Source: an uncultured Actinomycetota bacterium | GTDB lineage: Bacteria; Actinomycetota; Actinomycetes; Streptosporangiales; Streptosporangiaceae | Assembly: GCA_963816485.1 (NCBI GenBank) | Contig: CAWFKU010000004.1 | Coordinates: 642,454-706,453, forward strand | DNA: 64,000 nucleotides | Direction: 5' to 3' | In this document: one piece after another, positions 13,644 to 47,090 of the stretch | Layout: every line of letters starts with the position of its first letter | How positions within the stretch are numbered: position 1 is the first letter of the stretch | Program-made: the position numbers and the translations under genes | Notes under the pieces: model-generated | What the model was told of the DNA's origin: nothing | The model's database searches: none | The model's input: only the letters and a program-made list of their open reading frames with translations

Positions 13644-13669
13644 GGGTTCTCCGTTCTCAGGTGCTCGGG

Positions 13670-28975: not shown

Positions 28976-29072
28976 GCCGCCTTAGCTCAGTCGGCAGAGC
29001 GGTTCACTCGTAATGAACAGGTCGTCGGTTCTCGTAATGAACAGGTCGTCGGTTCGATTCCGACAGGCGGCT
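28976..29072 (+). tRNA. tRNA-Thr (anticodon CGT) gene carrying a 24-nt internal tandem duplication (97 nt instead of 73)
   Basis: GCCGCCT TA GCTC AGTCGGCA GAGC G GTTCA CTCGTAA TGAAC AGGTC GTCGG TT [CTCGTAATGAACAGGTCGTCGGTT] CGATT CCGAC AGGCGGC T. Removing either 24-nt copy gives a canonical cloverleaf. Confidence 0.85.
29007..29054 (+). repeat. Perfect 2 x 24-bp tandem duplication inside tRNA-Thr
   Basis: ctcgtaatgaacaggtcgtcggtt at 29007-29030 and again at 29031-29054. The unit starts at the same base as the att direct repeat. Confidence 0.95.
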
Positions 29073-29073
29073 C
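29031..29073 (+). repeat. attL core (3' 43 nt of tRNA-Thr)
   Basis: ctcgtaatgaacaggtcgtcggttcgattccgacaggcggctc is identical to 51614-51656. Confidence 0.85.
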
Positions 29074-29130
29074 ACATTAGTACTGGCCACAGGAATATTT
29101 CGTTGCTACTTTCGTCATTGATCATCTTCC

Positions 29131-29154
29131 CGTGGACCGGGTCGTGGACCGGGT
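29131..29154 (+). repeat. Tandem 12-mers CGTGGACCGGGT x2, 58 nt downstream of the attL core (arm-type site candidate)
   Basis: Direct reading. The same offset and near-identical 12-mers are found after attR (51714). Confidence 0.7.
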
Positions 29155-29295
29155 CGCCTGATCGGCCGGCCGGGTGCCCTGATCGCCGGTCACTGACGGT
29201 GATGGCGACAGGTGGTGCGGTGCTCCTGGCTGGCAGGCGGGGGCTGCGATCGGGGAGCGCGACGCGAGAATTAGCCTTGTATGGGCTGGTTTCGG

Positions 29296-29800
29296 CTAGC
29301 CGTGCGGTCCCCTGGTTGCCTCTCGGCTGCCGGTGGCCTGGTGCGGCCGGATGGCTGTCGGACAGGCCGGTGACCCGTCAATGAGAAGCTCCTGCGGTAA
29401 CTCTGTTCTCCGGAGCCGGATACCCAGTGTTCGAGCAGTCGCCCGGTCACCTCGGCTCGGCAGGAGCGCGGCGACGATGCCCCTGCCGCGTGCGGCCATA
29501 CGGCTGATCCTGGTGGCGACTGCATCCAATCACCTGTCGCTGTCAACGCTGCGGGTCATGGTTTCGTCGGAGGACCACCGCTGTCTCCGGAATGGATCAT
29601 GGTGCCTATCTGCAGGCGCCACGAGCGGAAAGAGGCTGGTTTGGCCAGCTGCATTCCCACGGTCTCGCGCCCGTGATCGGCGAAGGTGATCATCACGGCG
29701 ACGGCGGCCGGGCCGTAGATCTTGACCCAGCGCACCCGAGCTGAACTGCTTGAGCAGAACGGCCGCGGAACGGTGATGGGTCATCTTGAACCTGCCGAGA
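29296..29800 (-). pseudogene. Possible heavily decayed DDE (rve-type) transposase/integrase remnant
   Basis: Pieces across three minus-strand frames read ITFADHGRETVGMQLA, TMIHSGDSGGP, ISRMAARGRG and AIRPHQ. They occur in the order expected for the D..(SR.vGw), HSD.G, SMSr.G and RPH motifs of IS3/IS481-like catalytic cores. This is motif-level resemblance only. Confidence 0.3.
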
Positions 29801-30054
29801 GAAGCGAATCCCCCAGTCAAGGAATGGCGGTGACCTGCTCGCCAGGAGCCAAGGTCCCCGGTACTGGCCCTGCCCTCGATCCCGGCTCGCCTGGCAAAGG
29901 GACGAGACCAAAGGGGCGGGCGGCCGGGACGTTGGGCTCTACCGGGCCGCGCGTCCGGCAGCCACGCTGGGGCGACTAGAGGGCGGTCGCTTCCCGGTCA
30001 CGGGAGCGGCTGCGCTATTGGCGCACCGATGCGAGTCGAAAGGCGGCGGTTCCG

Positions 30055-31267
30055 ATGAGGAGGCGCTCGGCGGCATTAGCGATCGGAAGGCTCGTCCGGG
30101 TGCTGCCCGTTGTCGTACTCGCCGCGGGCGTGGCGGCTGTCCCGGCGGCTGCGGGGGCAGTCGGCGCCGCAGCGGCGCCAGGCTCCGGTCACCGCGCGGC
30201 CGCTCCAAGCACGTTCCGCGGTACCTGGCGGCTGCTGCCGAGCGCACCGGTGACCAGTCTGCCGGCGTCGTGGGCGGTGTCCCATGCCTGGACCGGGCGG
30301 CACCTGATCGTGCACTATGCCCTGCTGGGCTCCTCGCAGGCTGGGAGCCGCGCCGTCACGTTCTCCTTTACCCCGGCCGGCAATGCCTGGGCGAAGCTCC
30401 CGGCCGGCCCGAAGCCCGTGCCTGCTCAAGGTGACGACGCCGCGGCGTGGACCGGATCCCGGATGCTCGTCTACGGACTGACGGGCGGAGCGTACTCGCC
30501 GGCCAGCAACACCTGGCAGCGCATCGCGCGGCCCGGCAGGCCGCCGAGCCAGATCAGCGGCTGGACCGGCAGCCGGCTGGTGGTCTGGGACGAGATCTGC
30601 TGCGGCATGACCGTCAACACCGCGGAGGTCTACAACCCGGCGGCCGATGCCTGGCACACGTCGACGTCGCCGCTGGACAAGCGGTCGGGCGCGATGGGTG
30701 CCTGGACCGGCAAGGAACTGGTCATCTTCGGCGGCTTTTCCGGCTTCCCGGCCGGAGGCAGGGTCTTCAGGGACGGCGCCGCGTACAACCCCGCGACGGA
30801 CACCTGGCGGCGGCTGCCGCCGATGCCGCAACGCCGCGGCGGCGGGACGGCGGTCTGGGACGGCAGGGAAGTGCTATTCCTCGGCGGCACGGGACCGGGG
30901 ACCAGCCAGCCTTCACTGCGCGGCATGGCATTTAACCCGGCGACCAACAACTGGCGGCTGCTGCCCGTTATGCAGTACCGGCGAGCCCGGCTTCGCGGCG
31001 GTGTGGACCGGTCGGGACGTCCTGGTGTGGGGCGGGCTGTCCGGGCATCTGGGCGCGTGGGTCGTCCCGCCGCACGGCGAGGCGTACAACCCGGCGGCCA
31101 ACCAGTGGAGTGCGCTGCCGAAGTCACCGTTGCAGGGCCGTGAGGTCGCCGTCGCCGTGTGGACGGACCGCCGGTTGATCGTCTGGGGCGGCTACATCCC
31201 GGGGCCAGGCCAGTCCGTGCAGCGGACCTTCCTCAACGGCGCCGCATTCACCCCGCGCCAGCCCTGA
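30055..31267 (+). pseudogene. Secreted Kelch-repeat protein, frameshifted near 30975-30990
   Basis: Signal-peptide-like N-terminus. Repeated W(T/D)G..(L/V)(V/I).(G)G ... YNPA(T/A)(D/N).W units. ORF 30055..31143 loses the repeat pattern after NNWRLLPVMQY. The pattern resumes in ORF 30647..31267 (EPGFAAVWTGRDVLVWGG...AYNPAANQWSALP). Confidence 0.7.
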
Positions 31268-31395
31268 CATTGCCGTCGGGCGCGGCCCTGGGCCGGAAAA
31301 GATTCGCGATGCACACGTACTCCGTCCGCGCCATCGTGGCACTGGCTCAGTACAGGCCGGACCTCGGGGTAGGACTGCGCGACGCTGGCCTACCG

Positions 31396-31564
31396 CGTCG
31401 CGACCGGAGCGCAGGTGTGGGTCGCGCGGTACAGCGGCCACGGCAGGGCGCGTGACACCGCCTTCGCGGTGGCCACCGGCTCTGGCGGCGGGGTGTTCGT
31501 CACCGGGAGCAGCGCCGTCTCGGCGTCGCAGGCCGGCTACGAGACCGTCGCCTACGGCGGCTAG
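31396..31564 (+). pseudogene. C-terminal fragment of an SBBP-type beta-propeller repeat protein
   Basis: The frame ending at TAG 31562-31564 reads ATGAQVWVARYSGHGRARDTAFAVATGSGGGVFVTGSS...YETVAYGG. It matches the repeat unit of the 33244-34669 gene, with no start codon or signal peptide. Confidence 0.55.
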
Positions 31565-31941
31565 TGGACCGGGCGGCCCGATGCATCGGCTGGGCGCCCT
31601 GATCGTCGGCCCGGTCATCAGGTGCGCCCTCGCTCCGGCTAGGTCCCGCGATCTCGTGGCACCGTGCCCGTCCCGAGTCCTTGTCCTGACCGGCAAGCGG
31701 CGCCGGTGGCCGATGGCCAGCCATGCCACCGAATGCCCATCCGGCGTCCCCGGAGCAGCACCCGAACGCGGCCGGCTGGCGGGGTGGCTGGTTGCGGGCA
31801 AGCGTTATCCCGGCGCTGCTGGAGGGCAGCCTTAAGTACCGAGTCATTGCACCACGCTTACGGCTCCGATCTGTGAGCACCAATGAACAGCCTGTCGTGA
31901 TCTCGGCACCAGGTGATTAGCAGACTTCTGGGAGCATCGAA

Positions 31942-31978
31942 AGCAGGAGGCCGGGCGGCTCGCTCCGGCCTCCTGCTT
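31942..31978. terminator. 13-bp GC-rich stem-loop
   Basis: AGCAGGAGGCCGG (31942-31954), 11-nt loop, CCGGCCTCCTGCT (31966-31978). It lies between gene remnants and the convergent epimerase gene. Confidence 0.4.
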
Positions 31979-32178
31979 GGTGCTGGCGATTAGCGGGCGT
32001 GCGTCTCACGCCCCCGGGTCAGCGCCCCCGGTGCGGTCGGCCAAGACCGGGAAGGACCTGCGTGCCCTCAGCCTGAACGGCGGGCCCCGCCGGCCTTCCT
32101 CGAGCCTCCCGAGCTGCCCGAGCCCAGCCTGACGTGGGGCACCTGGTAGTTCCTATCTGAGTAGGCGTGCGCCGTCGG

Positions 32179-33172
32179 TCATGGCGCGAGCCCGCCGCGC
32201 ACCGTGTCGCGCAGCGCCTCCAGCGCGGTGAACCGGGGCGACCAGCCGAGCAGCTCCCTTGCCCGGGTCGTGCTCATGATCGCTGGCCGGCTCACCGCCT
32301 CCGCCCAGCCGGCCACGCCCGGGAGGGCGGGTAGCGCGGTCAGCAGCCTCGCGGCGGCCTGCGCGGGAGCGGCGGGCAGCGGCACCGGCAGCAGCCCGAG
32401 CTCGCGGATGATGCCGGCCGGGGTGACGATGCCGTCGGCGGCGATGTTGTAGGCGCCGGGCGGCCCCGCGCCGACCGCGCAGAGCAGCAGCGCACTGCCG
32501 ACGTCCTGCTCGTGCACGAGCTGCAGAGGCAGCGCCGGCGCGGCGACGGCTAGCGAGATCGGCGGCCGGACCTGATCACGGCGTCGGCTAGGCGCCGGCC
32601 GAGCGGCACCAGCGCGCCGGGCAGCAAGTCCTTGGCCCCTACGCTGGCGCGGGCCGACCACGATGCACGGCCGGAGCAAGTAGAGCGCAGGCTGCCCGGG
32701 ACCGGCGGCCTCGGCGTTGAGCAACTGCTCGAGCTCAGCCTTCTGGCGCGCGTAGAACAACCGCGCCGCCGGCCGCACTGGCCACTCTTCGGTCATCTCG
32801 GCTGGATTGTCGCGATGGAATCCGTAGGCGGCGACCGACGAGGCGTAGACGAAGCGGCGGGCGCCTGCTGCCGCAGCAGCGCGGTACGCGTTCAGCGTCC
32901 CCTCGACATTGGTCTGCTCGATCTCTCCCGGTGGCTCTACGCCAGTGACCATGAACGCCAGGTGCACGACGACGTCGGCCCCGCGGAACGCGGCAGCCAG
33001 GGTCGTGGGGTCACGCACGTCGCCGCGCCGGTAGAGCAGTTTCGTCCAGCCGCGTGCCGCAGGATCGAACGGGCGCCTAGCCACGCCCGTCACCAGCCCG
33101 ATCCGGGAGTCGGCCTGAAGCAGCGGAATCAGGCCGAACCCGAACGTTGCCGGTCGGTCCGGTCACTGCCAC
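32179..33172 (-). pseudogene. NAD-dependent epimerase/dehydratase family gene with an N-terminal frameshift (and a probable internal out-of-frame stretch)
   Basis: ORF 32179..33093 carries DVVVHLAFMV, YASSVAAYG and YARQKAELE (YxxxK). The Rossmann N-terminus VAVTGPTGNV(G)FGLIPLL lies upstream (to GTG 33172) in another frame. Residues around 32550-32640 read better in an alternate frame (GAKDLLPGALVPLGRRLADAV). Confidence 0.6.
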
Positions 33173-33243
33173 GGCCTTTCGCCGGGCGTTACGTGCAAAG
33201 GTTGAGGCGAATTACGAACGCTCGAAGGTGAGGGGATCACGCA

Positions 33244-34669
33244 ATGCGCGGAACCATGAGGCATGCGTGCGCCGCGATAGCGGCGGTCGCGACGCTCGGC
33301 GGGCTCGGAGTCCTCGGGGCCGGGGCCGCCAGCGCGGCTGGAACCGCCAGTCCGGCAACGGCCCTCTCGGCGGCTGTTGGGGGCGCTCGGCTGTGGGTGA
33401 GCCGCTACGACGGCCCGGGCCACGGCTTCGACGGCGCCAGCGCGGTGGCGGTGACCGGGGGTGGCCGTAAGGTGTTCGTGACGGGAACCAGCGGGCGCAT
33501 GGCCGCCACGATCGGCTACGACGCCTCCACTGGCGCGCGGCTGTGGGTCAAGCGGTACGGCGGGCCCGGTGACCGCGGAGCCAACGGCGAGGCGGTCGCG
33601 GTTAGCCCGGATGGCGGCACGGTGTTCATGGCCGGGTTCAGTTCCGGTGCCACCTCACGCGATGACTACGTCACGATCGCGTACAACGCCGCAACCGGGG
33701 GGCGGCGCGGCGGCGCACTACAACGGCTCGGCCAGCAACGGCGATGAGGCATTCGCCCTGGCGGTCTCACCGGACGGCAAGACCCTGTTCGTCACCGGGC
33801 AGAGCGCCGGCGTCGGCTCAGGCGCCGACTACGCCACGATCGCCTACAGCACGGCCACCGGCGCGCGCCTGTGGGCGGCGCGGTACAACGGCCCCGGCAA
33901 CAGCTACGACACCGCGAGGTCCCTGGCGATCGGGCCTGGCGGCCACAGAGTATTCGTGACGGGGTTCAGCACGGGGGCGAGTACTGCCGGGCAGTACGCC
34001 ACGGTCGCCTACGACGCTGCCTCCGGCAGGCAGCTCTGGGTGCGGCGGAGCCCTGGCCCGGGCCTCGCCTTCGCTTCATCGGTTGCGGTCGGTCCGGGCG
34101 GCGGCCGGGTGTACGTCACCGAGACCAGCGGCATCACCGCCGCGACCCTGGCCTACGACGCGGTCAGCGGAGCGCGGCTGTGGGCCACGCGGTATCGGGG
34201 CCAGGACTCCCGGGGTGCCTTCGCCGCCAAGGTGGCCGTCAGCCCGGACGGCGACACGGTATACGTCGCCGCCACGTCCGGACAGGTGGTCAGCGACGAC
34301 TACGCCACCATCGCCTACAACGCCAGCACCGGTGCGCGAAAGTGGCTCCGGCTCTACAACGGTCCCGGCAACAGCGTGGACGACGCGACCGCCCTGGCCG
34401 TCAGCCCGAGCGGCACGGTCTACGTCACCGGCGCGAGCAGCAGCGGCAGCGCGACCGCGACTGACTACGCCACGGTCGCCTACAGCGCCGCTGGCCGGCA
34501 ACTATGGGTTGGCCGATACAACGGCCCGGCCAACGGCGAAGACCACCCAGCCGCGATCACAGTCAGCTCGGCAGGCAGCCGAGTGTTCGTCACCGGCCAG
34601 AGCCTCGGCGCCACGACCTCCGGCCACAACGCCGGCTTCGACTACGCCACCGTCGCCTACTCCGGCTAG
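33244..34669 (+). pseudogene. Secreted SBBP-like beta-propeller repeat protein, disrupted near 33697-33715
   Basis: Signal peptide MRGTMRHACAAIAAVATLGGLGVLGAGAASA. About 9 repeats of DYATIAY(N/S/D)A.TGARLW..RYNGPGNS.D.A.A.AVSPDG..V(F/Y)VTG.S. ORF 33244..33747 and ORF 33569..34669 are the two halves. The junction repeat lacks the LW residues, which suggests a small out-of-frame deletion in a G-run. Confidence 0.7.
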
Positions 34670-34994
34670 CCCATCCGCGACCTCGGCCACCCAAGAGCAG
34701 GCTGGCGACATCCTTTACACGGCCACCGCCACACGGCGCCAGTTCTGGGCCGTGGGCAGCTAGTTCTCATCGTCGCGAGGAAAGACCGTCACAATGCGCC
34801 GCTGCCAGCCGTAACACCACCGTTCCGAGCCTTTGCCGGATCGGCCGCCGAAGGGGCCCCGGCTGATGGCCGGCCAGGCGGTCAGGGCGAGAGAACATCG
34901 CCTGAGCTGGCTTGGCGCCGCCGCCACCAAGCCCGCGCCGTCACTGCCAGTACCAGCGGCGACGAGAACGAGTTCACTAAGTGCGGCTGCCGTA

Positions 34995-36377
34995 TTAGTG
35001 GTGGCGCAGCCAGACGCCGAAGTCCTGTCCCGCGTTAGAGAGGACTGAGGCGTCCGCCACGACCGCCCCGGCATGGGTACCGTCGGTGGTGTCAATCCAC
35101 CGGCTGGTGGCCCAGGGGCCGAGGATGCTGCCATGGCCGCCGCGGTAGGTGGTGGCTTTGCTGCCGGTGAACTGCCATATCTGAGTGTCCGCCGGTGGCG
35201 GGCTCATGGTGCTGTTGTCGAACATCGCGAGCACTTCGGCTGAGTTCAGCGGCATCTGAGCGGCATATGGCGCGGCCACCGTGACGGTCTGGCTGGTTCC
35301 CCTGGTGGGATCGCTGACGGTGAAGGCGTAGTGGCCGTTCCGGTCGTAGTAGATGCTGACCGCCAGCTGGTCACCGGGCGCGGGGTTCACAGCGAACGTG
35401 CCCTGAGCCGCGTTGGAGGCGAAGCTGATGCTGCCCGCGCCGCCGCCGGGAAGGACCTCGATGTCCGCGTACGGCCGCGGGGTCGGCCCGCCGTTGTGGC
35501 CGAGGCTGACCAGCGCCGTGCCGCCGTTGGCGGCCGGTGCCTGCGCTGGGGGCACCGTCATGGTCGTGGCGATATACCGGAAGGGGCCCGCGCTGTCTGA
35601 GTAGCCGGCGAAACCCGAGGTGTAGGTCAGCGGCAGCGCACGCAGCCAGACGCCGAAGTTCGCCCCGCCCTTCGACAGTCCGGACGGGCTCCTGACCACC
35701 GCGCCCGTAGAGGTGCCGGTGCTGGTCTGGATCAGCTGCCTGGTTTGCCACGGGCCGGTCACCGTGCCGCGGGTGCCGCTGTAAGTGGTCAGCCGTGCGC
35801 CAGTTACCTGCCATAGCCGCGTGTCGGCGGTTGGAGGCGGCACCGGCCCGCCACCCGCGTTGCCGGATAGCGAGGCCACGTTATAGACGGCTTTGCCGGT
35901 CTTGACCCGCACGGTGCGGGTGACGTCCTGGGTAACATCCACGGCGGTGAAGTAGATATGGCTGTTGCGGTCGTAGTAGATGCTGACCCGGAGCCGATCA
36001 CCGGTCTTCGGGTTCATCGCGAGTGGGGTCAGTATCTGGCCATCGCCCCATCCGACGGTGCCGGAACCGCCGCCAGGACGAACCACGATGCTGAAGGGCG
36101 GACTCATGGGCGCGGCGTTTCGCAGCGTCATGATCATCTGGCAGAAATAGCTCTGGGACGGGATGACCTGCGGGACGGTCACCGTGGCCTCGACGTACCG
36201 GAACCACCGCCCCGTGGACACGTAACCCGCATCGTTAGTGGTGTAGACCGACGGGCCCAGCGACCCCAGGGCCGCGATAGCCGGGGACGCAGCCCCGGCA
36301 AAGCCGAGAGTGACGGACGTCATGCCCGCCGCTGCTGTGGCATACAGCGCGTGGGTGAAGTGGCTGCGCATCGACAA
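34995..36377 (-). CDS. Secreted protein made of two homologous ~200-aa domains (G1 glutamic-peptidase / concanavalin-like fold suspected)
   Basis: Signal-like N-terminus. The two halves align: AGYVSTGRWFRYVEATVTVPQ...DRLRVSIYYDRNSHIYFTAVD...RLWQVTGARLTTYSG...FGVWLR versus AGYSDSAGPFRYIATTMTVPP...DQLAVSIYYDRNGHYAFTVSD...QIWQFTGSKATTYRG...FGVWLRHH. The fold guess is weak. Confidence 0.7.
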   Translation of the reverse strand: MSMRSHFTHALYATAAAGMTSVTLGFAGAASPAIAALGSLGPSVYTTNDAGYVSTGRWFRYVEATVTVPQVIPSQSYFCQMIMTLRNAAPMSPPFSIVVRPGGGSGTVGWGDGQILTPLAMNPKTGDRLRVSIYYDRNSHIYFTAVDVTQDVTRTVRVKTGKAVYNVASLSGNAGGGPVPPPTADTRLWQVTGARLTTYSGTRGTVTGPWQTRQLIQTSTGTSTGAVVRSPSGLSKGGANFGVWLRALPLTYTSGFAGYSDSAGPFRYIATTMTVPPAQAPAANGGTALVSLGHNGGPTPRPYADIEVLPGGGAGSISFASNAAQGTFAVNPAPGDQLAVSIYYDRNGHYAFTVSDPTRGTSQTVTVAAPYAAQMPLNSAEVLAMFDNSTMSPPPADTQIWQFTGSKATTYRGGHGSILGPWATSRWIDTTDGTHAGAVVADASVLSNAGQDFGVWLRHH

Positions 36378-36925
36378 GACCTCCTGCCGTGCAGCCCAGG
36401 GCCGGATAACCGTGGCCTATTATCAACAATGGCCCCGTGGCCGGTCCCAGGCCCAATCCTCGGTTGCTCCGCATTCTGCTGGCCGCTGGTACGCCAAGTC
36501 GGGAGTAGGACGTCACTCCAGTGACCACCCAGCAATTTGATTTTCCCGAGATCCCAGACCATCAGGGCAGGGCCATTCGGCCTGTCGGCCACGGCAGACG
36601 ACTCCCGTGAGGGCCGGATACGCACGAGAGAACGACCAGACAGAGCAATAACTGCTGGAGGCATCACCGGAACTCATAGATCAGCGCGTAGCAGGTCGCG
36701 CCCGGCGGGTCGACCGAAAAGACGCTACTGCGATCGCGGTCAGCGCTCATGCGCCGTCTCTGGCTGGAACGCGGAGATGTGCCAGGCGGGCCAGTGACTC
36801 ATGACCGGGTCCAGCCGGCTGTTGCCGACCGGGCGGATCGTTGCGTGTGCATGGCTCGGGCGCTGCCAGAGCGGGGAAGTGGGTCGCCGGGATGCCCGGG
36901 ACTGCGTTCGGGCTGGGCTACCCGG

Positions 36926-37236
36926 GAGCTTGCGGAACTCAGCCGTGGTCAGGGTCGCCCTGGTGATCGAGGCCAGGGTTCCGCGCTTGATCGTGCCGTG
37001 CTCAGAAACCACGGCCGCCCCGCCCTCGGCGTCGCGGTCGACGGCGTGGCTTCCCTTAACCCGCGCCCTCGAAGCCTGCGACCCGCGGTCCGCGACATCG
37101 CGGACCGGCAGGTCCGACAGCGCCGGACTGAGGCAGCAGGCAGCGCGGACGAGGCCCACCAGCGGCGTGCTGAAGACATAGAGCGCCGGGTCGTCCGCTT
37201 CATCCAGGTAGAGTCCGACGGCCTCCGCAAGGCTGG
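36926..37236 (-). pseudogene. Decayed hicB-hicA toxin-antitoxin remnant (paralog of 50923-51365)
   Basis: SLAEAVGLYLDEADDPALYVFSTPLVG..SPALSDLPVRDVA...VKGSHAV.RDAEGGAAVV...GTIKRGTLASITRATLTTAEFRKL. It parallels the intact pair (SLAEAVGLYLDEVDDPERYVSSTPLV / SPALSDLPGRDVA..VKGSHAVYGDADGRVAVVPGLGTIKRGTLASILRRAGLTTDEFLKL). The HicB N-terminus is missing, there is an internal shift, and the stop codon is lost. Confidence 0.65.
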
Positions 37237-37283
37237 GCCTTGTGGCTGGCCGTCGTGGTCACCGTGCGGATTGCCGCACCTAA

Positions 37284-37715
37284 TCACCCGGCCGGTTTCC
37301 ACGCGGGATAAAACGCGGACCAGAAACCTGATGCTGTCGGGTACCTGGTGATCCACGGGGCGCGGTGCAGGCCGCGAACCGCCGCCTCCGCGTACGGAGA
37401 CGGCTGCCGGGTCCCGGCTGCCGAGGGAGCGCCGATGATCTGCTTGCTGCCGATCCGCCGCCACGGGCCTGCGAAGCCGCCGCCGATGAGCTTGGCCCAC
37501 AGCCCGTCGCGGTAGCCGTGGATCAGGATCGATCCGCCGTTGCTCTCCGGGATGTAAGCGATCGCCGGCGCATTCCTGGTATGACCGCCGACCGACGTCC
37601 ACCGCCAGTGCGCGAATGAGGACGTCGTCCGGACGCCGTGGTCGGTCCATCCGGCCGCGACCTCCCTCCGCCTCGCTGCGCAGCCCTCCCTTCCCTGGGC
37701 TCGCAATAACCCCAC
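37284..37715 (-). pseudogene. Fragment of a beta-propeller (PLL/DUF346-like repeat) protein
   Basis: WTSVGGHTRNAPAIAY....SILIHGYRDGLWAKL...GPWRRIGSKQIIGAPSAAG has the W..(I/V)GG....AP...(V/I)..(G).DG.LW periodicity. High GC3, but only about 1.5 repeats and no credible start. Confidence 0.3.
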
Positions 37716-38013
37716 CGTTCCGCGACCGCAGGTGACCTGTCACCACCTGCCCGTCGGTGTCAACCTAGAGAAACGGCCGTAGGGTCGGCCGGGGAGGCCC
37801 GGGCAAGAGGGCTCTCCGAGCGGGTAATGATCAGTGGCCGTGTTCAGGCAGCCACCGGCCCGTCCTGGCTGCGGCGTCCACCTAGGTGAATTCGGGCGGT
37901 AGGTGATGACAGGTCACCTGCCGGGGTGTGAGCCTAAGATCGCGATGCAGCGGCCGGGTAACGGCTGCGGCGGAGTCGATGAACCGCCTGGCAAGGGATG
38001 CCAGTGAAACTGG

Positions 38014-38353
38014 AGGAGGGCCCATGACCGCCGATACACCTGTCCTTGACACCCTCGCCGACATCACCGCGGCGTCGGTCGAGCACAATTCTCTTGCCCC
38101 GCGCGAGCTCATGCTCGCCAGGATCGCCGCCCTGATCGCGGTGGACGCGCCGCCTGCCTCCTACCTCGCCAACGCCGGCGCCGCCGAGGACAGCGGGGTC
38201 ACCGCCGACGACGTCCAGGGAGTCATGATCGCGGTTGCCCCGGTGGTGGGCACAGCCAGGGTGGTCTCGGCAGGCGGGAAGATCCTTAGGGCGCTGGGTT
38301 TCGCGATTGAGGTGGCCGCCGAGTTGGCCGACGACGCCGATGCGGGGCAGTAG
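38014..38353 (+). CDS. Carboxymuconolactone decarboxylase (AhpD-like) family protein
   Basis: ATG 38014 after GGAGGAGGG. LAPRELMLARIAALIAVDAPPASYLANAGAAEDSGVTADDVQGVMIAVAPVVGTARVVSA. Confidence 0.65.
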
Positions 38354-38889
38354 CAGCAACCAGGCCCAAAGGTCGAGGAAGTGATCGAGAACGCTGTGAC
38401 CAGGGCGGAGAAGCAGACAACCAAGGAGCTTGACGTGGATCTGAAGGACCTCGACAAGGGCCATCGCGGCGGTCGAACGGCTCGGTGATCTCAGGGCGGG
38501 CAGCCGCCGGACGGTCTCAGGGCGGCTGACGCGAACCTGACGATTCTGCGGGCCTGCTTTCTGTGGGGAGATATCGGCGCTCAGCTGGAAAATGACCGCT
38601 GGGCGGCCGGGCTGGAAGGCCTCGGGTCGCCTTGGCGGCCATCGGCTTGCTGGGCGGTTGGCACGGGCCTACCATCGAAGACCCGTCCTAGGCGGCCGGA
38701 CTACGAATACACGCACGCAGCCTGACTCAGCCAGAACCCGCAGGTCACCCGGACTGAATCGTATTGTCGAGGTACAAGATCAGACCGGCGGCGCAGGTGG
38801 CTGCCGTGTCGACGCCCGGAAACCCGCCGATGTGGCGGGGCGCGATCCGTCAGTAGGGTCGGTCTGAACGTATCGTGGAAGGAGGCCTG

Positions 38890-39237
38890 ATGGGCGAGCA
38901 GGAGTACCTACCCGATGTGTATCTGAGTTTCCGGGACCGATTTCCGGCGGTGGCAGCCGCTGTGGACAAGCTCGCGGAATCCGCCGATGCAGCGGGCCCG
39001 CTGGACGAGCGGACCGTTCGCCTGGTAAAGCTCGGGCTAGCGGTCGGAGGTCTCGCCGAAGGCGCGGTGCGCTCCAACGCCCGCCGCGCGCTGAGCGCTG
39101 GGGCCACGCCAGCGGAGATCTGGCAGGTGGTGGCGCTGGCGGTGACCACGAGCGGGTTTCCCTCGGCTGTCGCTGCCTTCGGCTGGATCCGTGAGGTGCT
39201 CGAGCCGGCGGTGCCGGGGGTAGCCGACCGCAGCTGA
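38890..39237 (+). CDS. Carboxymuconolactone decarboxylase (AhpD-like) family protein
   Basis: ATG 38890 after GGAAGGAGG. LDERTVRLVKLGLAVGGLAEGAVRSNARRALSAGATPAEIWQVVALAVTTSGFPSAVAAFGWI. Confidence 0.7.
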   Translation: MGEQEYLPDVYLSFRDRFPAVAAAVDKLAESADAAGPLDERTVRLVKLGLAVGGLAEGAVRSNARRALSAGATPAEIWQVVALAVTTSGFPSAVAAFGWIREVLEPAVPGVADRS

Positions 39238-39349
39238 TGGGCCTGCGGCTTCAGCCGCGCATCGCGTGGCCGATGCTTTTCCGTTGGCCAGACGGCTTCC
39301 GTCGTCCTCGCCCTCGGCGTCTGTTGGTCTCGAAGTTGGTGGTTCTCCT

Positions 39350-40291
39350 TCACCGGGTGAAGCGTTCCCACCATTCCGGATCCGGACGGAACGGCGCTGC
39401 CGGCAGGCCGGTGGCATCGGTGTCCACCCGGTAGACCAGTCCGGCGGCCAGATCGGAGCGGCGCTGCTCGTCGGTCCAGCCCTCTGTCGCTGTCGTGACG
39501 AAGAGCCGGTGCAGGCCGGGGCCGCCGAAGGCACAGCACGTGCACTGCTGGGCCGGGATGGGGTACACGTCGCGCAGCGAGCCGTCGGGTGCGTAGTGGT
39601 TGACCCGCCCGCCGCCGTAGATCGCCACCCAGAGGTCACCCGCAGCGTCCACCGTCATCCCGTCTGGTGCTCCGATGTCTTCGGGCACGGTGACCAGGAC
39701 TCGCCCGGCGGAGATGGTGCCGCGATCACCGTCGAAGGTGAACGCGTGGACCACCCGCGGGCCGCTGTCCACTAGGTACATTGTCCGCCCGTCGGGGCTC
39801 CAGCCAATTCCGTTGGAGATCGTCAGGCCCTCGAGCACCACCTCGGTCCGCCCTGTCCGGTCCAGCCGGTAGAGCGCGCCCCCGCCGGTGTGGTGGTCGT
39901 CGGCCAGGGTCCCGCCCCAGAACCTGCCCTGGGGATCGCAGGCGCCGTCGTTCATGCGGGTCCCGGCCGGTGCGACCTGGGCGATGGTGCGGTGGGTGCC
40001 GTCGAGCGCGAGGTGAACGAAGCCGCGCCCGGCCCCCAGTACCCAGCCGTCGTCCCCCTGGATGGGAGCGATCATCCCGACCGTTCCAGGCAGCTGGTAG
40101 ACCCCGACGCGCTCGATCAGGCCGTCCTCGCGGAGCAGGCCCCGGGCGACCCGTCCGGCCAGGATGTCGACTGCCAGCAGCTCGCCGCGGCGGCCGTCCC
40201 ACCGGATGCCCTCACCGAGCTGAGTCTGCTCGGTATTGCAGGCGACTGCCTGGCCGTCTCGCAGGGGACCGTTTTTCGTGTTAGTTACCAT
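39350..40291 (-). CDS. SMP-30/gluconolactonase/LRE family protein (sugar lactonase)
   Basis: ATG 40291 after GGAGG. QLGEGIRWDGRRGELLAVDILAGRV..., NDGACDPQGRFWGGT, ISNGIGWSPDGRTMYLVDS, PDGMTVDAAGDLWVA. Last gene of the minus-strand operon. Confidence 0.85.
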   Translation of the reverse strand: MVTNTKNGPLRDGQAVACNTEQTQLGEGIRWDGRRGELLAVDILAGRVARGLLREDGLIERVGVYQLPGTVGMIAPIQGDDGWVLGAGRGFVHLALDGTHRTIAQVAPAGTRMNDGACDPQGRFWGGTLADDHHTGGGALYRLDRTGRTEVVLEGLTISNGIGWSPDGRTMYLVDSGPRVVHAFTFDGDRGTISAGRVLVTVPEDIGAPDGMTVDAAGDLWVAIYGGGRVNHYAPDGSLRDVYPIPAQQCTCCAFGGPGLHRLFVTTATEGWTDEQRRSDLAAGLVYRVDTDATGLPAAPFRPDPEWWERFTR

Positions 40292-40293
40292 TG

Positions 40294-41340
40294 TCAGCCT
40301 CCGAAGTCGACGACGACCTTGATGTCGTCTGGCCCGCGCTGCAGGGCGTCGGCGATGTTCTGGGGCGGGACCCGGCGGGAGATCAGCCGGGCCAGCCAGG
40401 CCCGGTCGGCCCGGGCCAGCTCCTCGGCGGCCCGGTAGAAGTGCCGCCGGTTGGCGTTGACCGAGCCGAGGACCACGTTGTTCTGCAGGACGACCTGTTT
40501 GGCGACGTCGGCCGTGGATAGCCCGCTCGGCGCCCCTCCGCTGCCCACTCCGGTGAGGCAGACCACCCCGCCGGCGCCGACGTGGCGGATCGAGTCGATG
40601 ATCACCGAGCCGACCCCGGTGCACTCGATCACGACATCGGGTTCGAGGCCCAGGGCGTCAATGGCCCCGGCATGGTAGGTAGCGCCGAGGTCGGAGACGA
40701 GCTGAGGCTTGGCGCCCTTGGTGACCTGGTCGAGGACGTGGACGTCGAGCCCGTGCTGGACGCCGATCAGGGCGGCGAGCATGCCGATCGGGCCGGCGCC
40801 GGTGACCAGCACGTGCCGGGGTTCCCAGAAGGCCCGCGCTCGCATGGCCGCGACCAGTTCCCAGGCCTTGGCCACCACGGTGGCCAGCTCGAGCAGCACG
40901 CCGAGGACGCCGAGGGAGGGGTCGAGCTTGGTGAAGTACCCGGGTTCGATCCGCCAGCGTTCGGACATGAACCCGTCGATCTGCTTGATGCCCCGCTCGG
41001 TGTACTGACCGTTGCGGCACATATCCCACTCACCGACGGCGCAGTTGGGGCAGGGCACCGGGTCGGGGCGCCGGACGATCCCGACGATAAGGTCGCCGGC
41101 CTGCAGCCCGCTGCGCGGCCCGGGATCCACGACCCGGCCGAGCGACTCGTGGCCGAGGATGAGCCGGTCCCGCCCGGGAGGCGCCCAGCCGTAGGCGCCC
41201 GAGGTGATCTCGACGTCCGTTCCGCAGATGCCGACGGCCACCGCCTCGACCAGGACCGAGCCGGTGCTCTGGTCCGGTTCGGGGACCTCCTCGAAGCGAA
41301 CCGACCCCGCGACGCCCGGCTGAACCGTTACTGCTTTCAT
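40294..41340 (-). CDS. Zinc-dependent MDR dehydrogenase, glucose 1-dehydrogenase-like
   Basis: MKAVTVQPG...VAVGICGTDVEITSGAYGWAPPGRDRLILGHESLGRVV..., CPNCAVGEWDMCRNGQYTERGI, VLVTGAGPIGMLAAL. Its stop lies 2 nt before the lactonase ATG, and its ATG overlaps the upstream stop. Confidence 0.8.
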   Translation of the reverse strand: MKAVTVQPGVAGSVRFEEVPEPDQSTGSVLVEAVAVGICGTDVEITSGAYGWAPPGRDRLILGHESLGRVVDPGPRSGLQAGDLIVGIVRRPDPVPCPNCAVGEWDMCRNGQYTERGIKQIDGFMSERWRIEPGYFTKLDPSLGVLGVLLELATVVAKAWELVAAMRARAFWEPRHVLVTGAGPIGMLAALIGVQHGLDVHVLDQVTKGAKPQLVSDLGATYHAGAIDALGLEPDVVIECTGVGSVIIDSIRHVGAGGVVCLTGVGSGGAPSGLSTADVAKQVVLQNNVVLGSVNANRRHFYRAAEELARADRAWLARLISRRVPPQNIADALQRGPDDIKVVVDFGG

Positions 41341-44300
41341 GACTGCTCCCCAGATAGTCTTTTTCGCTGGGCCGGAGGCGCGATCTGAATCACCGGGAGT
41401 TGAGCTCTCCGTCGCGGGAGAGCGGGCGCTGCCCCTCGCCCGGCGGGACGATCGGCCCGCAGCCGCGCGCATGACGGGCAGAGCTCGCGGTCCAGAAGGG
41501 CCGCCATGTGATCCGGCAGGCGATCGCGGATGAATTCCCGGTGCGCGGGCGTCTGCGTCGGCGCGCCGCATTCGCTACAGGTCAGCAGCGGCTGCTCGCA
41601 CACGACGGTTCCGGTGATGACCGTGCGGCGCACGAGGTCCGGCGCGGCGCCGCCGAGCGCGCCAGCCAACAGGTCGACCTCATCCTCGATCCGGATGGCG
41701 CCGGTCGGGCATACCTGGGTGCAGGCGCCGCAGCCGATGCACAGCTCGGCTGGGCGGGTGAAGTCGAAGTAGGCGAGCCGGCCGGCGTCGGTGTCTGACA
41801 TGCGCAGCGCGTCGACGCCCATCTCGCTGCAGGCTGCCATGCACAGGCCGCAGCCGATGCAGACGTCGCAGCGCAGGCAGCGGCGCGCCTCGTCGTGTGC
41901 CATCGCGTCAGTCAGGCCCTCCTCGATCTGGACGTAGTTGCCGAGGCCGACAACGTCGTCGGCGGTCCGCTCGGGCATCACGGCACGGGGCAGGTAGGTG
42001 CGATCGTCCGCCCCGACGGTCAGGGGAATGACGTCGGCGCGGCGTACTGGCGTGCCGGTGGCGACGTCCATGGGCTCCCCGCGCAGCCAGGCATCGATCG
42101 CGTTCGCGGCGATCTTCCCGGAGCGGATGGCCTCCACGACCGTCCGCGGGCCGTGCTCGACGTCGCCCCCGGCGTAGACGCCTGGCACCTTGGTCATCAG
42201 AGTCTTCGGGTCGGTGAGGATGAAGCCGTGGGTGGTCTCGACCTCGCTGCCGTGCAGGATCGTCAGGTCGGTGCCCTGACCGGTGGCGAGGATCACGTGG
42301 TCGCCCTCGAGCTTCAGCAGGCGGGCGGCGTCGAACTTCGGATCAAAGGCTCCGGTCTCGTCGTGGACCTGCTCGCAGAACTGGAAGGTGGTCTCGCCGT
42401 CCGCCCCGATCCGGACCGGGCCCCAGCCGGGGTGCAGTTGCACGCCTTCCCCGACGGCGTTCTCGATCTCGTGGGCGCTGGCCGGCATCTCGCGGCGGTT
42501 CTCAAGGGAGACCATGTCGACATGCGTTGCGCCTTGGCGCAGGGCCGTCAAGGCGACGTCGATCGCGACGTTGCCGCCGCCGACGACGATCACCCGCGGC
42601 CCTACCCGGACCGGCTGGCCGCTGCGCACGTCCCGAAGGAAATCGATGCCCCCGAGCACGAAGGGCTGATGGACACCTTCGATCGGGATCAGGCGCGAGC
42701 GCTGGGTGCCGAGGCCGAGGAACACGGCGTCGTAGTTCTTGCGGAAGGCATCGAGGCTGCCGACCTCGGCACTGGTGCGGATCGCGATGCCCAGCGCCCG
42801 GATCTGGTTGAGCTCCTGGTCGAGGAGGTCGGGCGGCAGGCGGTAGGCCGGAATGCCGTAGCGCAGCATTCCGCCGGCCTTCTCCTGCTCCTCCAAGATC
42901 TCGACCTCGTGACCGAAGGTGCGCAGGTAGTAGGCAGCGGTGAGGCCGGCTGGGCCGAGCCGGCGATGCCGATCCGCTTGCCGCTGTCCGGCGCGATCTC
43001 GGGTTTCGGGTAGCCGCCGTCGGCGAGGCAGTGCTCGGCCGCCTTGGCCTTCATCGGCCGGATGAACACGGCGCCGTTGCTGTCGCCGCGAACGCAGGCC
43101 GATTCGCACGGCGCCGGGCAGACCAGGCCGCAGGTCAGCGGCAGCGGGTTGTCACGCCTGATGACCTCGATCGCCGCCCGGTAGTCGCCATGGCCGATGT
43201 GAGCGATGAAGCTCGGGATGTCGATGTTGGCCGGGCACGTGCCGTGACACGGCGCGGCCTGGTGCTCGAAGCACAGCCCCTCCGGGCAGGACTCGCGCCG
43301 GGCGTGACGCTCCCACTGCTGGCGGTAGTAGCGCAGCGAGCTGCCCAGCGGCCACGCGGCCGCCAGCCCCTGCGTGCCCAGCTCGAGCGCGACTTCGTCG
43401 AGTGCTCGGAGATCGGCGGCGTCACCGCGGCCGAGCGTTAGCTCGGCCACCAGGCGGCCGGCCCGGGCGAGCAGGGGCCGCACCGGATCGCCTTCGGCGT
43501 TGTCGGCGAGCTGCCAGTGCCGGTAGAGCGCGCGGCGCGTCTGGCGCAGCAGGCACGCGCCCTCGGCCATCACCATCAGCGTGGACGGCACGGGCTCGAC
43601 GCCGGCGGAGGCGAGCGACAGCGGCCGGCATGACACGTCGGCCTCGGACAGCGGTAGGAAGCCGCCCAGGCCGTCGTCGAACACGAGCACCGGGTCCTGG
43701 CCCGCCACCTCAACGCCACCACCCCAGGCGTCGATCTGCCGGCGCAGGCTCTGTGACTGGGCGAGCTCGACCAGGCCGCGCTGCTTGATGCCGCGCCGCA
43801 GCGTCAGCAACGACGCCCCGGGGCCCGACGCGCCGGCGAACAGCAGGGCGATCCGGCACCAGGTCTCAGGCGTGTGGATGAGCCGCGAGGCGTCGTTGGG
43901 CGGTCCCTCCGCCCACGGGCCGGGGTGGCTGTCGCGCTGCACGGTCAGCTGCATGCGGGGCGTGGTGACGTGGGCGAGCGAACGGATCGCGTCGACGGCG
44001 TTCAGGAGGGCGGCTTCGTGACCGTTCAGCTCGGCCGGGAGGCGCAACTGGACCTCGCGGCTGTCGCGCAGGCCAGCGGCGATCAGCACCCCCTCGGCCA
44101 GCAGCCGCGGAGCGCCATCGAGGACCGCGGCTGTGCCGCGGGCGCGCGGATCGAGGCCGGTGGCATCGATCACCAGTACCGTAGGGCCGATGCCGCGCAG
44201 AAACCGGCGCCAGGCCACAGAGACCGGCTCGCCCGCACGGCTGCTCTCCGCGAGGCCCGACTCCTGCACGCGCTGCAACCGCTGCAACGGCGTCAGCTCC

Positions 44301-44416
44301 CGCGCCTGGGCCAGGCCCGGCAACGCGCCGGCGAGCGTGGCCGCCGGCGGCACAGGACCGACCAGGGCGGCGGCGCCCGGGTCAAGCCAGCTCGGCAGCG
44401 TCTGGACCGCGCTCAT
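41337..44416 (-). pseudogene. Fusion oxidoreductase: degenerate NuoF/RnfC-like N-domain + GltD-like (4Fe-4S + FAD/NAD(P)) + C-terminal 2x[4Fe-4S] ferredoxin. Reading frame broken once near 42955
   Basis: ORF 42689..44632 (ATG 44416) ends in out-of-frame text after GKRIGIAGS. ORF 41337..43109 continues with PAGLTAAYYLRTFGHEVEILEEQEKAGGMLRYGIPAYRLP..., IVVGGGNVAIDVA, VYAGGD, then CLRCDVCIGCGLC and CIGCGACTQVCP. One missing base in ggctcggcccagcc (expected GSGPAG) restores a single ~1026-aa ORF. This is either a genuine frameshift or a homopolymer sequencing error. Confidence 0.75.
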
Positions 44417-44940
44417 GGCGAGGTGTCCTCGCCGCCCGGCGGCTCGGCGAGGATGTGCCGGGCGTAGCGCTCGCGGCGCGGGTCCGGCAGCTCGTTGGCC
44501 TCGCCGAAGGACAGGCAACCGGTCACGCACTTGGTGACGCAGGCGGGCTGCAGCCCGGCGTCGAGCCGGTCCATGCAGTAATCGCACTTGACCACCTTGT
44601 TCGTGGCGGGGTCCCACTGCGGAGTGCCCCACGGACAGGCCGCGATACAGCTCTTGCAGCCGATGCAGAGGCTGTCCTCGACAAACACGATGCCGTCCTT
44701 CTCACGTTTTTGCATCGCGCCGGTCGGGCACGCCCGGACGCACCACGGGTCTTCGCAGTGGAAGCACGGCATGAACACGAAGCGGGTCAGGGGCAGTCCG
44801 TCGGCCTCGACCGGTTCCAGCGCGATGACCCGGCACGGATCGGGGCCGGGACCGAGCTGCTTGTTGGTCTTGCAATGGACTTCGCAGGCCAGGCACCCGA
44901 TGCAGTTGGCCTCGTCGTGGCGAAGCTCGTATTTGCTCAT
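44413..44940 (-). CDS. 4Fe-4S dicluster subunit (DmsB/PsrB-like electron-transfer subunit)
   Basis: CIGCLACEVHC, CFHCEDPWCVRACP, CIGCKSCIAACP, CDYC...CVTKC. ATGA-type overlaps with both neighbours. Confidence 0.85.
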   Translation of the reverse strand: MSKYELRHDEANCIGCLACEVHCKTNKQLGPGPDPCRVIALEPVEADGLPLTRFVFMPCFHCEDPWCVRACPTGAMQKREKDGIVFVEDSLCIGCKSCIAACPWGTPQWDPATNKVVKCDYCMDRLDAGLQPACVTKCVTGCLSFGEANELPDPRRERYARHILAEPPGGEDTSP

Positions 44941-47090
44941 CCGGCTGCTCCTTCCGGTGTCCGGCGCCTCACCTGCACGACCGTCTCGGTCAGCGCATTG
45001 CCGCCGCCGGCGGGATCGAAGTCGTAGAGCTTGCCGTGCTGCAGGCGCTGGTCGGCGACGCCGAGGCCGCGGGCGCGGGTGGCGAGTGGCACCGTGGCGC
45101 CGTAGCCGTGCAACATGAACACCGCGTCGGGATGGATCCAGCGGGTGACCTTCGCCGGCAGGCAGCCGGTGTAGCGGCCACCGCCGTTGACCTCCACCTC
45201 GTCGCCGTCGGCGATCCCGAGCGCCGCGGCACGGTCGGGGTGGATCCAGAGCACCTGTTTGGGTGCTCTCTCGTTGAGCAGGGGATTGTTGAGCGACTGG
45301 CCCTGCGCGAGCGTCGCCGTCTTCGCGAACAGCAGCGTGAACTTCTCGCCCGTCGGCGCATCTTTGGGGACGTACGCCGGCAGGCTCTCAAGCCCGGCCT
45401 GCTTGAGGACCTCGCTCTCGATCTCGATCTTCCCTGAGGGCGTCGGGAACGTGAGCTCGTCGCGGGGGATCAGTTTCGGAGCCGCCGCCAAGCCGACCAG
45501 GCCGGCCTCGCGCATCTTCGAGACGGTGACGCCGGTGCCATCGAGCTGGTAATTCCACAGCTCCTCGATGGTCTCGAAGTCAAGCGCCTGTCTGATGCCC
45601 ATCCGGTGCAGGATCTCGCGGAAGATCCACCACGCCGGGCGGCTGTCGAAGCGCGGTGCGATCGCCTGGTCGCGCATGGCGAAGACCGGCACCGGGCCGT
45701 TCATCTGGCAGAGGATGTTCGCGCGCTCCAGGTAGGTCGACTCGGGGAGGATGACGTCGGCGAACCAGCCCAGTTCCGAGTAGCGCACGTCGATCGAGAC
45801 GAGCAGCTTCAGCTTCTCGATCGCCCGTTGCGTCGCCTCCGGGTCGGGCATGCCGGTGAACGGGTCGTGGCGGTAGGCGAAGTAGGCGCCGATCCCGTAC
45901 GGCTGCCCCGTCTCCATCGCGGCGAAGGCCTGATGCAGCATGCCGATCGCCGGATCCCATTGCGGCCGCTTGCCGCCAGCGCCATCCACGCGCGGCTCCC
46001 TGACCTCCGGCACCCGATCTATCAGATGGTTCAAGCCCTTGCGGCCGTAGTGCTCGGGCGGCTTCCCCAGCACGCATCCACCCGGAAGCTCGATGTTGCC
46101 CATCAGCGCGTTCAGGATCAGCGCCGACCGGCTCACGTAAAACGACTGCTTGTGACGAGCTGACATCCACCCCGGATGGAAGATCACATGTGGTGCGTCC
46201 GCAGCGATCTCGGTCACGAACGCGCGAAGCTCGGCGGCGGGAACGCCGGTGTGCGGCTCCTGCCACTCCGGCGTTGTGTCCTTAACCGCCTCCCGCAGGT
46301 AGTCCAGGCCGGAGACGAAACGGGCGACGAAGTCCTTGTCGTAGGCATCCTGCCTCAGGACCTCATGGATTATGGCGAGGTTCAGCGCGTAGTCGCTCTT
46401 CGGTCGCACCTGCCAGTAGCGGGTGGCCTTGGACGCCGTGATCGTGGCGCGCGGATCGATGTAGGTGCAGCGCATCCCCCTCGCCACCGCGGCCATGAAC
46501 GCCTTAGCCTCCTTGACCATCAGCGATTCGACGACATTGCGGCCGTAGAGCACGAGATGCTTGCAGTGCTGGTAGTCGAACAAGAGCCCTGCGGCGCCGA
46601 AGCCGTAGAGCGAGCGTGTGGCGTTATGAACATTGCCGGCGCAAGCGGCATCGTGATCGAAGTAGTTCGGCGAGCCAAGCGCCCGAACGAAGGTCTGGGT
46701 CAGGTCAGTAAAGGGGCCGCCACGATCGGAAAGCGCGATACCGCGCCCGCCGAAGACATCGATCGTCTCAGTCAGCTTCTCGGCGATGTAGTCGAGGGCC
46801 TCGTCCCAGGACACCCGCCGCCACTGGCCGCCGCCACGCTCGCCAGCACGGATCAGCGGCGCCTGCGGCCGCTCGTCGTCAGACTCCAGAAACAGGCCGG
46901 CCGCGCCCTTCGCGCACAGGCTGGCGCCGAGGGCCCGGTCGTGCGTATTGCCCTGCAGCCAGGTCACACGGCCGTCCTCGACCGTCACCTCCATCGGGCA
47001 ACGCACCGCGCACATGCCGCACATGCTGTAGACCGTGCGCCGGCCTGGAGCACCCACGCCGCTTACGTTCGGTGCCATAGGGGAAGTCAT
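44937..47090 (-). CDS. Molybdopterin (bis-PGD) oxidoreductase catalytic subunit, cytoplasmic (no Tat signal), substrate unknown
   Basis: ATG 47090 after GGAG. The N-terminal FS0 motif is CGMCAVRC...CAKG. A candidate Mo-ligand Cys is in FDHDAACAGNVHNATRSLYG. The C-terminal beta-barrel region reads LWIHPDRAAALGIADGDEVEV. No RRxF(L/V)K twin-arginine motif upstream. Confidence 0.85.
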   Translation of the reverse strand: MTSPMAPNVSGVGAPGRRTVYSMCGMCAVRCPMEVTVEDGRVTWLQGNTHDRALGASLCAKGAAGLFLESDDERPQAPLIRAGERGGGQWRRVSWDEALDYIAEKLTETIDVFGGRGIALSDRGGPFTDLTQTFVRALGSPNYFDHDAACAGNVHNATRSLYGFGAAGLLFDYQHCKHLVLYGRNVVESLMVKEAKAFMAAVARGMRCTYIDPRATITASKATRYWQVRPKSDYALNLAIIHEVLRQDAYDKDFVARFVSGLDYLREAVKDTTPEWQEPHTGVPAAELRAFVTEIAADAPHVIFHPGWMSARHKQSFYVSRSALILNALMGNIELPGGCVLGKPPEHYGRKGLNHLIDRVPEVREPRVDGAGGKRPQWDPAIGMLHQAFAAMETGQPYGIGAYFAYRHDPFTGMPDPEATQRAIEKLKLLVSIDVRYSELGWFADVILPESTYLERANILCQMNGPVPVFAMRDQAIAPRFDSRPAWWIFREILHRMGIRQALDFETIEELWNYQLDGTGVTVSKMREAGLVGLAAAPKLIPRDELTFPTPSGKIEIESEVLKQAGLESLPAYVPKDAPTGEKFTLLFAKTATLAQGQSLNNPLLNERAPKQVLWIHPDRAAALGIADGDEVEVNGGGRYTGCLPAKVTRWIHPDAVFMLHGYGATVPLATRARGLGVADQRLQHGKLYDFDPAGGGNALTETVVQVRRRTPEGAAG

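Follow-up and report, generated by a model that had tools for sequence, protein, structure and literature searches.

Islands inserted in tRNA genes (tDNAs), and the tandem arrays that they form, are described in the work on Islander (Hudson, Lau and Williams 2015, PMC4383910) and are among the closest known counterparts of the locus reported here. Canonical integration leaves fragments that include an end of the tDNA and never internal ones (PMC4383910); internal tDNA fragments are not generated by integration, and Islander filters them out (PMC4383910). Crossover at the anticodon loop makes up the ‘A’ class of the Islander scheme (PMC4383910). Integrative elements of actinomycetes (AICE) have been reviewed (PMC2440964), and a further way in which an element can alter its target is tRNA-dependent lysogeny, where a common core of ~10 bp is used, the tRNA is destroyed and the phage provides a replacement tRNA (Guerrero-Bustamante & Hatfull 2024, PMC10865867). 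On the RNA side, the relevant comparison is with class II tRNAs and with nev-tRNAs, which have a V arm and an unexpected anticodon (PMC3333845; PMC9976931). The identity elements of threonine tRNAs consist of acceptor-stem pairs and anticodon bases (PMC9976931).

The locus studied here lies in a 64,000-nt stretch of DNA, the whole of which is called the window below. Much like other tDNA islands, it contains an island (E1) with a 3′ fragment of the target tDNA, in direct orientation, at its far end, and related genomes have a precise empty site where E1 is absent. It departs from such islands in two respects: there is no integrase gene inside the island, and the target tDNA has not been regenerated intact, as the gene at attL holds a 24-nt internal duplication.

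A 24-nt tandem duplication in tRNA-Thr(CGT)

The 24-mer CTCGTAATGAACAGGTCGTCGGTT is present twice, head to tail, in the tRNA-Thr(CGT) gene (29007-29030 and 29031-29054), and the layout of 28976-29073 is GCCGCCTTAGCTCAGTCGGCAGAGCGGTTCA / CTCGTAATGAACAGGTCGTCGGTT / CTCGTAATGAACAGGTCGTCGGTT / CGATTCCGACAGGCGGCTC (Table 1). TRF reports the repeat at 29007-29055 with a period of 24, 2.0 copies, 100% matches and a score of 98, and its phase can be shifted by 1 nt, as C29055 carries the period on. There are three matches to the 24-mer in the window, starting at 29007, 29031 and 51614, compared with none in 100 shuffles. Copy 1 holds the anticodon loop CTCGTAA, the 3′ anticodon stem, the variable loop, the 5′ T-stem and bases 1-2 of the T-loop; it is an internal tDNA fragment (tRNA positions ~32-55) that ends two bases into the T-loop. 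The part of the gene that precedes it (28976-29006) has the same sequence in the nine closest relatives (L081-L089, described below) and is supported both by ARAGORN on the single-copy form and by the alignment to the Rfam family RF00005. The perfect internal 24-bp tandem duplication of the original prediction was thereby recovered at the same coordinates, with 100% matches by TRF and the three 24-mer matches. Two of its structural claims also held: the anatomy is that of a tRNA 5′ part, a 24-nt partial core and a full 43-nt core, and the duplicated unit starts where identity with the distal repeat starts, copy 1 matching exactly from 29007 and 51614.

When one copy is deleted, ARAGORN returns a canonical 74-nt tRNA-Thr(cgt), and when both are kept it gives a 98-nt ‘tRNA-His(atg)’. 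We rejected the latter label, as it would require a D arm of poor quality and an anticodon stem with mismatches.

Table 1. Positions of the duplicated gene, the att cores and the associated elements in the window
Feature	Position	Strand	Description and basis
tRNA-Thr(CGT) 5′ part	28976..29006	+	Acceptor 5′ strand, D arm, anticodon stem 5′ strand; chromosomal side of attL
Copy 1 of 24-nt unit	29007..29030	+	TRF, sequence matching
Copy 2 of 24-nt unit	29031..29054	+	Opening 24 nt of the full att core
Full 43-nt att core, attL of E1	29031..29073	+	Anticodon loop to C74; identical to 51614-51656
Distal 43-nt core, attR of E1 and attL of E2	51614..51656	+	GTGTTT directly before
Island E1, 22.5 kb	29074..51613	.	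Pfam; relatives’ empty sites
HicA toxin and DUF7387 (HicB-like) pair	50923..51365	-	Pfam; right end of E1
Left end of older element E2	51657..52168	+	blastn; includes arm-type motif 51715-51734
Predicted arm-type tandem motif GTGGACCGGGTCGTGGACCG	29132..29151	+	P′ arm of E1, 58 nt after core
Predicted arm-type tandem motif GTGGAACGGGTCGTGGACCG	51502..51521	+	P arm of E1, 112 nt before distal core
Predicted arm-type motif of E2 left end	51715..51734	+	Third GTGGAMCG pair

Related loci, att cores and integrated elements

A scan with the adjacent PSP1/RicT gene gave 80 related loci, from Streptosporangiaceae and Trebonia-like MAGs and isolates, and a protein search and contigs added nine closer relatives (L081-L089) with 95-97% PSP1 identity and ~88-92% upstream DNA identity. 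Synteny with the relatives runs from position ~18 kb of the window to the tRNA and ends there. In seven of the nine closest (L081, L083-L087, L089) a normal tRNA is followed directly by TCTTTCC…GTGGAACGATTCGTGGAACG, which is the sequence of the window from 51657 on. Since the tRNA of these relatives abuts the sequence that is found here past the distal core, 29074-51656 is an insertion. The remaining two, L082 and L088, carry other elements in that place, and these end in HicAB, arm repeats and the GTGTTT-core junction (compare 50910-51656 of the window).

The stretches 29031-29073 and 51614-51656 are identical over 43 nt on the same strand, or over 45 nt with the preceding TT (29029-29073 and 51612-51656). 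The original prediction took this direct repeat for an att core, and the relatives bear it out, as their normal tRNA runs straight into the sequence that follows the distal core; judged from this comparison of sequences, the 43-nt repeat is an att core. All 86 cores found in 90 sequences start at the anticodon loop, and the left edge of the duplication is therefore the crossover edge of the family. Two or more cores are seen in 11 of the 68 core-containing loci, with three cores in 2 of them; the three cores are serial in L081 and L084. The tRNA-Thr(CGT) gene is a hotspot at which elements with tyrosine integrases insert, with the crossover at the anticodon loop. The junction of GTGTTT with CTCGTAA, as at the distal core, is seen again in L002, L003, L081, L082, L084 and L088, and GTGTTT is typical of the family.

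By Pfam, the cargo of E1 comprises Kelch and beta-propeller proteins, an epimerase, a peptidase A4, a glucose dehydrogenase, an Fe-S/molybdopterin oxidoreductase operon and HicAB, the last of which also stands before the GTGTTT-core junction in L082 and L088. No transfer, replication, int or xis genes were identified in E1, and ARAGORN finds no tRNA genes in 29074-64000. The left junction of E1 has no match in metagenomes, where a sister copy of E1 was not found, and an attP-like GTGTTT-core sequence, the free form of the element, has no match in IMG/VR. The left end of E2 is 88-94% identical by blastn to the sequence right after the tRNA in L081, L083 and L084. Both E1 and E2 are decayed elements.

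Several other features were observed within and beyond E1. The Kelch/PQQ-type beta-propeller ORFs contain eight diverged units of ~57 nt (…LWV.RY.GPG…; 31400-34650). A degraded HicA/HicB-like paralogue lies at 36893-37234 (~82% to 50910-51248), 14 kb from the intact copy, and past it (~36.9-37.2 kb) there is no degenerate att core or arm repeat. Just upstream of a CMD-family ORF (37928-38353) is a 24-nt inverted repeat, 92% complementary, with its arms (37728-37751 and 37898-37921) 146 nt apart. Downstream of the conserved end of E2, a stress-type gene cluster (~53900-61500) includes a BON-domain protein (53936-54709) and an AI-2E transporter-BON fusion (59969-61528); by eye, its translations also appear to contain an Hsp20-like ORF, a VapBC-like pair and an IS1380-like transposase fragment (~58.7-59.8 kb).

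Two tandem repeats were observed on the other side of the tRNA gene. A perfect 18-nt tandem duplication, ATCGACCTGTGCTGACTG (x 1.9, 100%), covers the stop codon of the gene that ends at 19605 (19594-19628); L082 has it in a diverged two-copy form and L084 has a single copy. Because it is common to L082, though diverged, short tandem duplications are biological in this lineage. A complex tandem array with nested periods of 18, 21 and 39 nt, rich in GCCGAGCCC, lies upstream of the topoisomerase I gene (20665-20844).

In attP sites of the pSAM2/L5 type, paired direct repeats (arm-type sites) are found on either side of the core. The paired motif GTGGAMCG-N4-GTGGAMCG has exactly 3 sites in the window, compared with 0.02 expected, and these lie 58 nt past core 1, 112 nt ahead of core 2 and 58 nt past core 2. 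The P-arm motif (51502-51521) is kept in L081, L082, L084, L088 and L002, and the GTGGAMCG motif also follows tRNA-Thr(CGT) in L002, L003, L010 and L043. The pair is probably an arm-type binding site for an integrase or RDF. In L010, a 424-aa Phage_integrase ORF begins immediately after the arm-type repeats at tRNA-Thr(CGT); the integrase gene of this type carries a frameshift in L017, and no more than a stub of it is left in L043 and L002. No integrase was detected in the window by Pfam on ~30 ORFs, by tblastn with the L010 integrase (only E >= 0.6) or with an HMM of the integrases of 24 relatives (best E 0.055 over all window ORFs). An imperfect 21-nt tandem repeat (85%; 29149-29189) stands right after the P′ arm, at the place where the integrase gene starts in intact relatives.

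Other paired direct repeats occupy the first ~130 nt past the tRNA in the related loci (L001-L089), namely CGTAGCAGTTT, GGGGAGCC, TGCTAACA, GTACAGC, GAGTGACTA and GGGGCGACT. As differing paired repeats stand at one position, several integrase specificity families use tRNA-Thr(CGT). In L088, the region 10950-14390 is chimeric: the left end combines GGGGCGACT repeats with part of an integrase, the right end belongs to another family (HicAB, GTGGAAC arm repeats and the GTGTTT-core junction), and there is no core between the two ends. The lack of an intermediate core in L088 is evidence of core-removing deletions in these arrays.

Genuineness and origin of the duplication

The duplicated form of the gene was seen in the window alone. 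ARAGORN finds 74 tRNA-Thr(cgt) genes in 73 related loci, and all 74 are 74-79 nt in length, with none longer. There is no other truncated internal core among 86 cores and 89 related loci, and no tDNA fragment of the T-loop type in the close relatives. The junction GTCGTCGGTTCTCGTAATGAACAGG has 0 matches in 185,579 GTDB species genomes and the JGI metagenomes, and a degenerate form of the duplication junction has 0 matches in IMG/VR. Both the missing junction in these collections and the uniform length of the relatives’ genes would be expected if the duplication were an artefact of assembly or consensus and the true gene were a normal 73-74-nt tRNA-Thr(CGT). Furthermore, the closest relatives are metagenome assemblies, some of them rich in frameshifts (L081), the source may be of the same kind, and strain heterogeneity exactly at the att site is conceivable in a metagenome contig. 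However, a 43-nt repeat is too short to mislead long-read assemblers, and since the repeat makes no de Bruijn graph cycle, the junction k-mers must exist in the reads. In the window, the ORFs of the housekeeping genes that flank the locus are intact over their full length. Consensus errors typically lack the perfect match and the clean edges of this repeat, and the second short tandem duplication of the window (19594-19628) is common to L082 in diverged form. We consider an artefact quite unlikely, and we infer, tentatively, that the sequence is real and that the attL copy of the tRNA gene may well have suffered a genuine lesion specific to this lineage.

The explanation of the lesion that we favour, with a confidence somewhat short of even, is that an exchange or a repair went wrong at the crossover edge of the integrase. 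E1 would have integrated normally between tRNA-Thr(CGT) and the older E2. In a single later event of a non-canonical kind, the T-loop (…GTCGGTT) would have been fused to the anticodon loop at its 5′ edge (CTCGTAA…), where the integrase crosses over. These two positions may have undergone an unequal or aberrant exchange, or a repair. Alternatively, a further element that once sat between two cores may have been lost imprecisely, in which case the TT ahead of copy 2 would be a remnant of the GTGTTT found before the cores of this family. The outcome would be an internal 24-nt repeat and no canonical att fragment. Microhomology at the join amounts to 3 nt (TTC) if the right partner was GTGTTT-core, and to 1 nt if the duplication arose purely in place. 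Decay by deletion is common at the locus: the window, L002 and L043 have lost the integrase, that of L017 is broken, and the chimeric element of L088 lacks an intermediate core. The coincidence of the boundaries would arise by chance in ~1 in 25-40 cases (about 3-4%), before other notable landmarks are counted. Three observations stand against an event at the integrase edge: it does not recur in 86 cores or three large collections, the window has no integrase able to act recently, and the T-loop site is unlike the anticodon-arm core site in sequence. As there is no second truncated internal core and no match to the junction elsewhere, recurrence gives no support for an enzyme-driven event.

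The duplication could instead be real and independent of the att site, a short tandem duplication produced by slippage, or by fill-in and end-joining at a staggered break, that starts at the anticodon-loop edge by chance. We regard this as possible but doubtful. That such repeats arise with no att site nearby is seen at 19594-19628, the window has no integrase, nothing similar recurs in the 89 related loci, and canonical integrase chemistry is precise, with integration leaving end fragments only (PMC4383910). The difficulty lies in the place where the repeat has fallen, for at ~1-2 duplications per 64 kb the 74-nt gene would receive roughly 0.1-0.2% of them, and the start must also lie no more than 1 nt from the edge of the att core (about 3-4%). 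In addition, the microhomology available to it is 1 nt only, and the best direct repeat, CGGTTC (26 nt apart), was left unused. Slippage on CGGTTC itself was rejected, as copies 26 nt apart would give a 26-nt product that retains ‘CA’, which is not observed. Deletion of a former element with random endpoints was likewise set aside, since the coincidence that it requires is far greater than for a duplication in place. Among the recombination readings, only the integrase-linked version is competitive with in-place duplication, and only it explains the boundary. The original prediction of a recombination scar in place of slippage is thus borne out as to the att context and the coincident edge, while the preference for a scar over slippage is not established.

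A canonical integration product, in the form of a displaced att fragment of an earlier element or of E1 inserted at a secondary site in the T-loop, appears highly improbable, even though the locus reads as a partial core followed by a full core and the TT before copy 2 fits the GTGTTT that precedes cores at the right ends of elements. Displaced fragments reach the 3′ end of the tDNA (PMC4383910), whereas the 24-nt piece is internal, stops in the T-loop and does not reach the tDNA end. Had E1 integrated at the T-loop, attR would contain no more than the terminal ~19-21 nt of the tRNA, and attR has a full 43-nt core; the close relatives have no fragment of the T-loop type.

Predicted RNA product and comparison with known systems

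With both copies retained, the 97-nt sequence scores 60.5 bits (gathering threshold 29) against the Rfam tRNA model RF00005, over model positions 1-71, and copy 1 provides the anticodon arm. The alignment puts a 25-nt insertion in the variable region, giving a variable region of 29 nt in total; for comparison, the single-copy tRNA-Thr(CGT) of L081 scores 70.1 bits with the Rfam tRNA model. It had been predicted that the transcript could form no canonical T-arm, which proved wrong, as GTCGG of copy 2 pairs with CCGAC and the Rfam tRNA model is matched at full length with 60.5 bits. The variable region is predicted to form an extra hairpin (GUUC/GAAC with a 7-nt loop), and the class-II-like fold that includes it has -33.2 kcal/mol, compared with -35.4 for the MFE. 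By these models, the 97-nt RNA can keep the acceptor stem, the D arm, the CGU anticodon arm and the T arm. On the minus strand, 28976-29073 gave a 25.6-bit match to the Rfam family ‘Plastid-ycf2 5′UTR’ (gathering 65.7); we regard it as spurious and tRNA-derived, as the normal tRNA of L081 gives the same match.

The predicted RNA fits neither class of tRNA fully. Much like a class I tRNA-Thr(CGU), it has all four arms and a score above the Rfam gathering threshold, but its variable region (29 nt) and length (97 nt) are outside the 4-5 nt variable loop and ~73-77 nt of that class. As for class II, the anticodon is Thr CGU and not one for Leu, Ser or Tyr (or Sec), and all relatives lack the extra arm. 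To our knowledge, a 29-nt variable region is longer than the variable arms of natural bacterial class II tRNAs. The threonine identity elements are untouched by the duplication. The modelled product would be a tRNA that is either crippled or tolerated despite its oversized extra arm. A bolder reading takes it for a functional class-II-like tRNA-Thr(CGU) in which the 29-nt variable arm is a second version of the anticodon arm, or takes the duplication for the record of a single event in which the integrase cleaved at both crossover subsites, the anticodon-loop edge and the T-loop; we consider this unlikely.

ACG accounts for 49% of the Thr codons in the neighbouring housekeeping genes, so demand for tRNA-Thr(CGU) is high. 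If its function were lost, the cost would be high unless a further copy of the gene or a UGU isoacceptor compensates. If the duplication is real, the gene would be a clean natural case of collateral damage to the tRNA gene targeted by integration, with the limited weight of a single unreplicated case, and if the functional class-II-like tRNA were true, it would give a snapshot of the one-step origin of extra-arm tRNAs. It raises the questions of how strongly the structure of a tRNA can be distorted and still be tolerated, and of whether island arrays damage the genes that they target as they decay. There is also a consequence for annotation, as ARAGORN mislabels the gene as tRNA-His(atg) and finders of the Islander type drop internal tDNA fragments.

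Set against the known systems, the locus is closest in its layout to the islands and tandem arrays of Islander: a 43-nt 3′ segment of the tRNA lies at both ends of a 22.5-kb insertion that relatives lack, the cores are serial, arm-type repeats stand beside the cores and tyrosine integrases are present in related loci. It differs from them in that the window has no integrase and the attL tDNA holds an extra internal fragment of 24 nt. With the integrative elements of actinomycetes it shares an actinobacterial host and a tRNA gene as target, and with attP of the pSAM2/L5 type the paired repeats, which flank the core of E1; in L010, the integrase gene starts right past the P′ arm. Unlike AICE, E1 carries metabolic cargo and no identified replication or transfer genes, int or xis. 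A tRNA at an actinobacterial att site that is left non-canonical after element events is also found in tRNA-dependent lysogeny. Here, however, the 43-nt core can rebuild the tRNA, the island encodes no tRNA, and the change is a duplication as opposed to a truncation. We rejected this mechanism because the core is sufficient to rebuild the tRNA and ARAGORN finds no tRNA in 29074-64000. The predicted RNA resembles class II and nev-tRNAs in having four arms and an extra stem-loop between the anticodon and T arms, and differs in that its extra arm is a fresh copy of its own anticodon arm and occurs in no relative. The locus is neither a canonical att scar nor an established class II tRNA; it is a typical actinomycete tDNA island array of the anticodon-loop class, with its integrases lost and one atypical lesion in the target gene.
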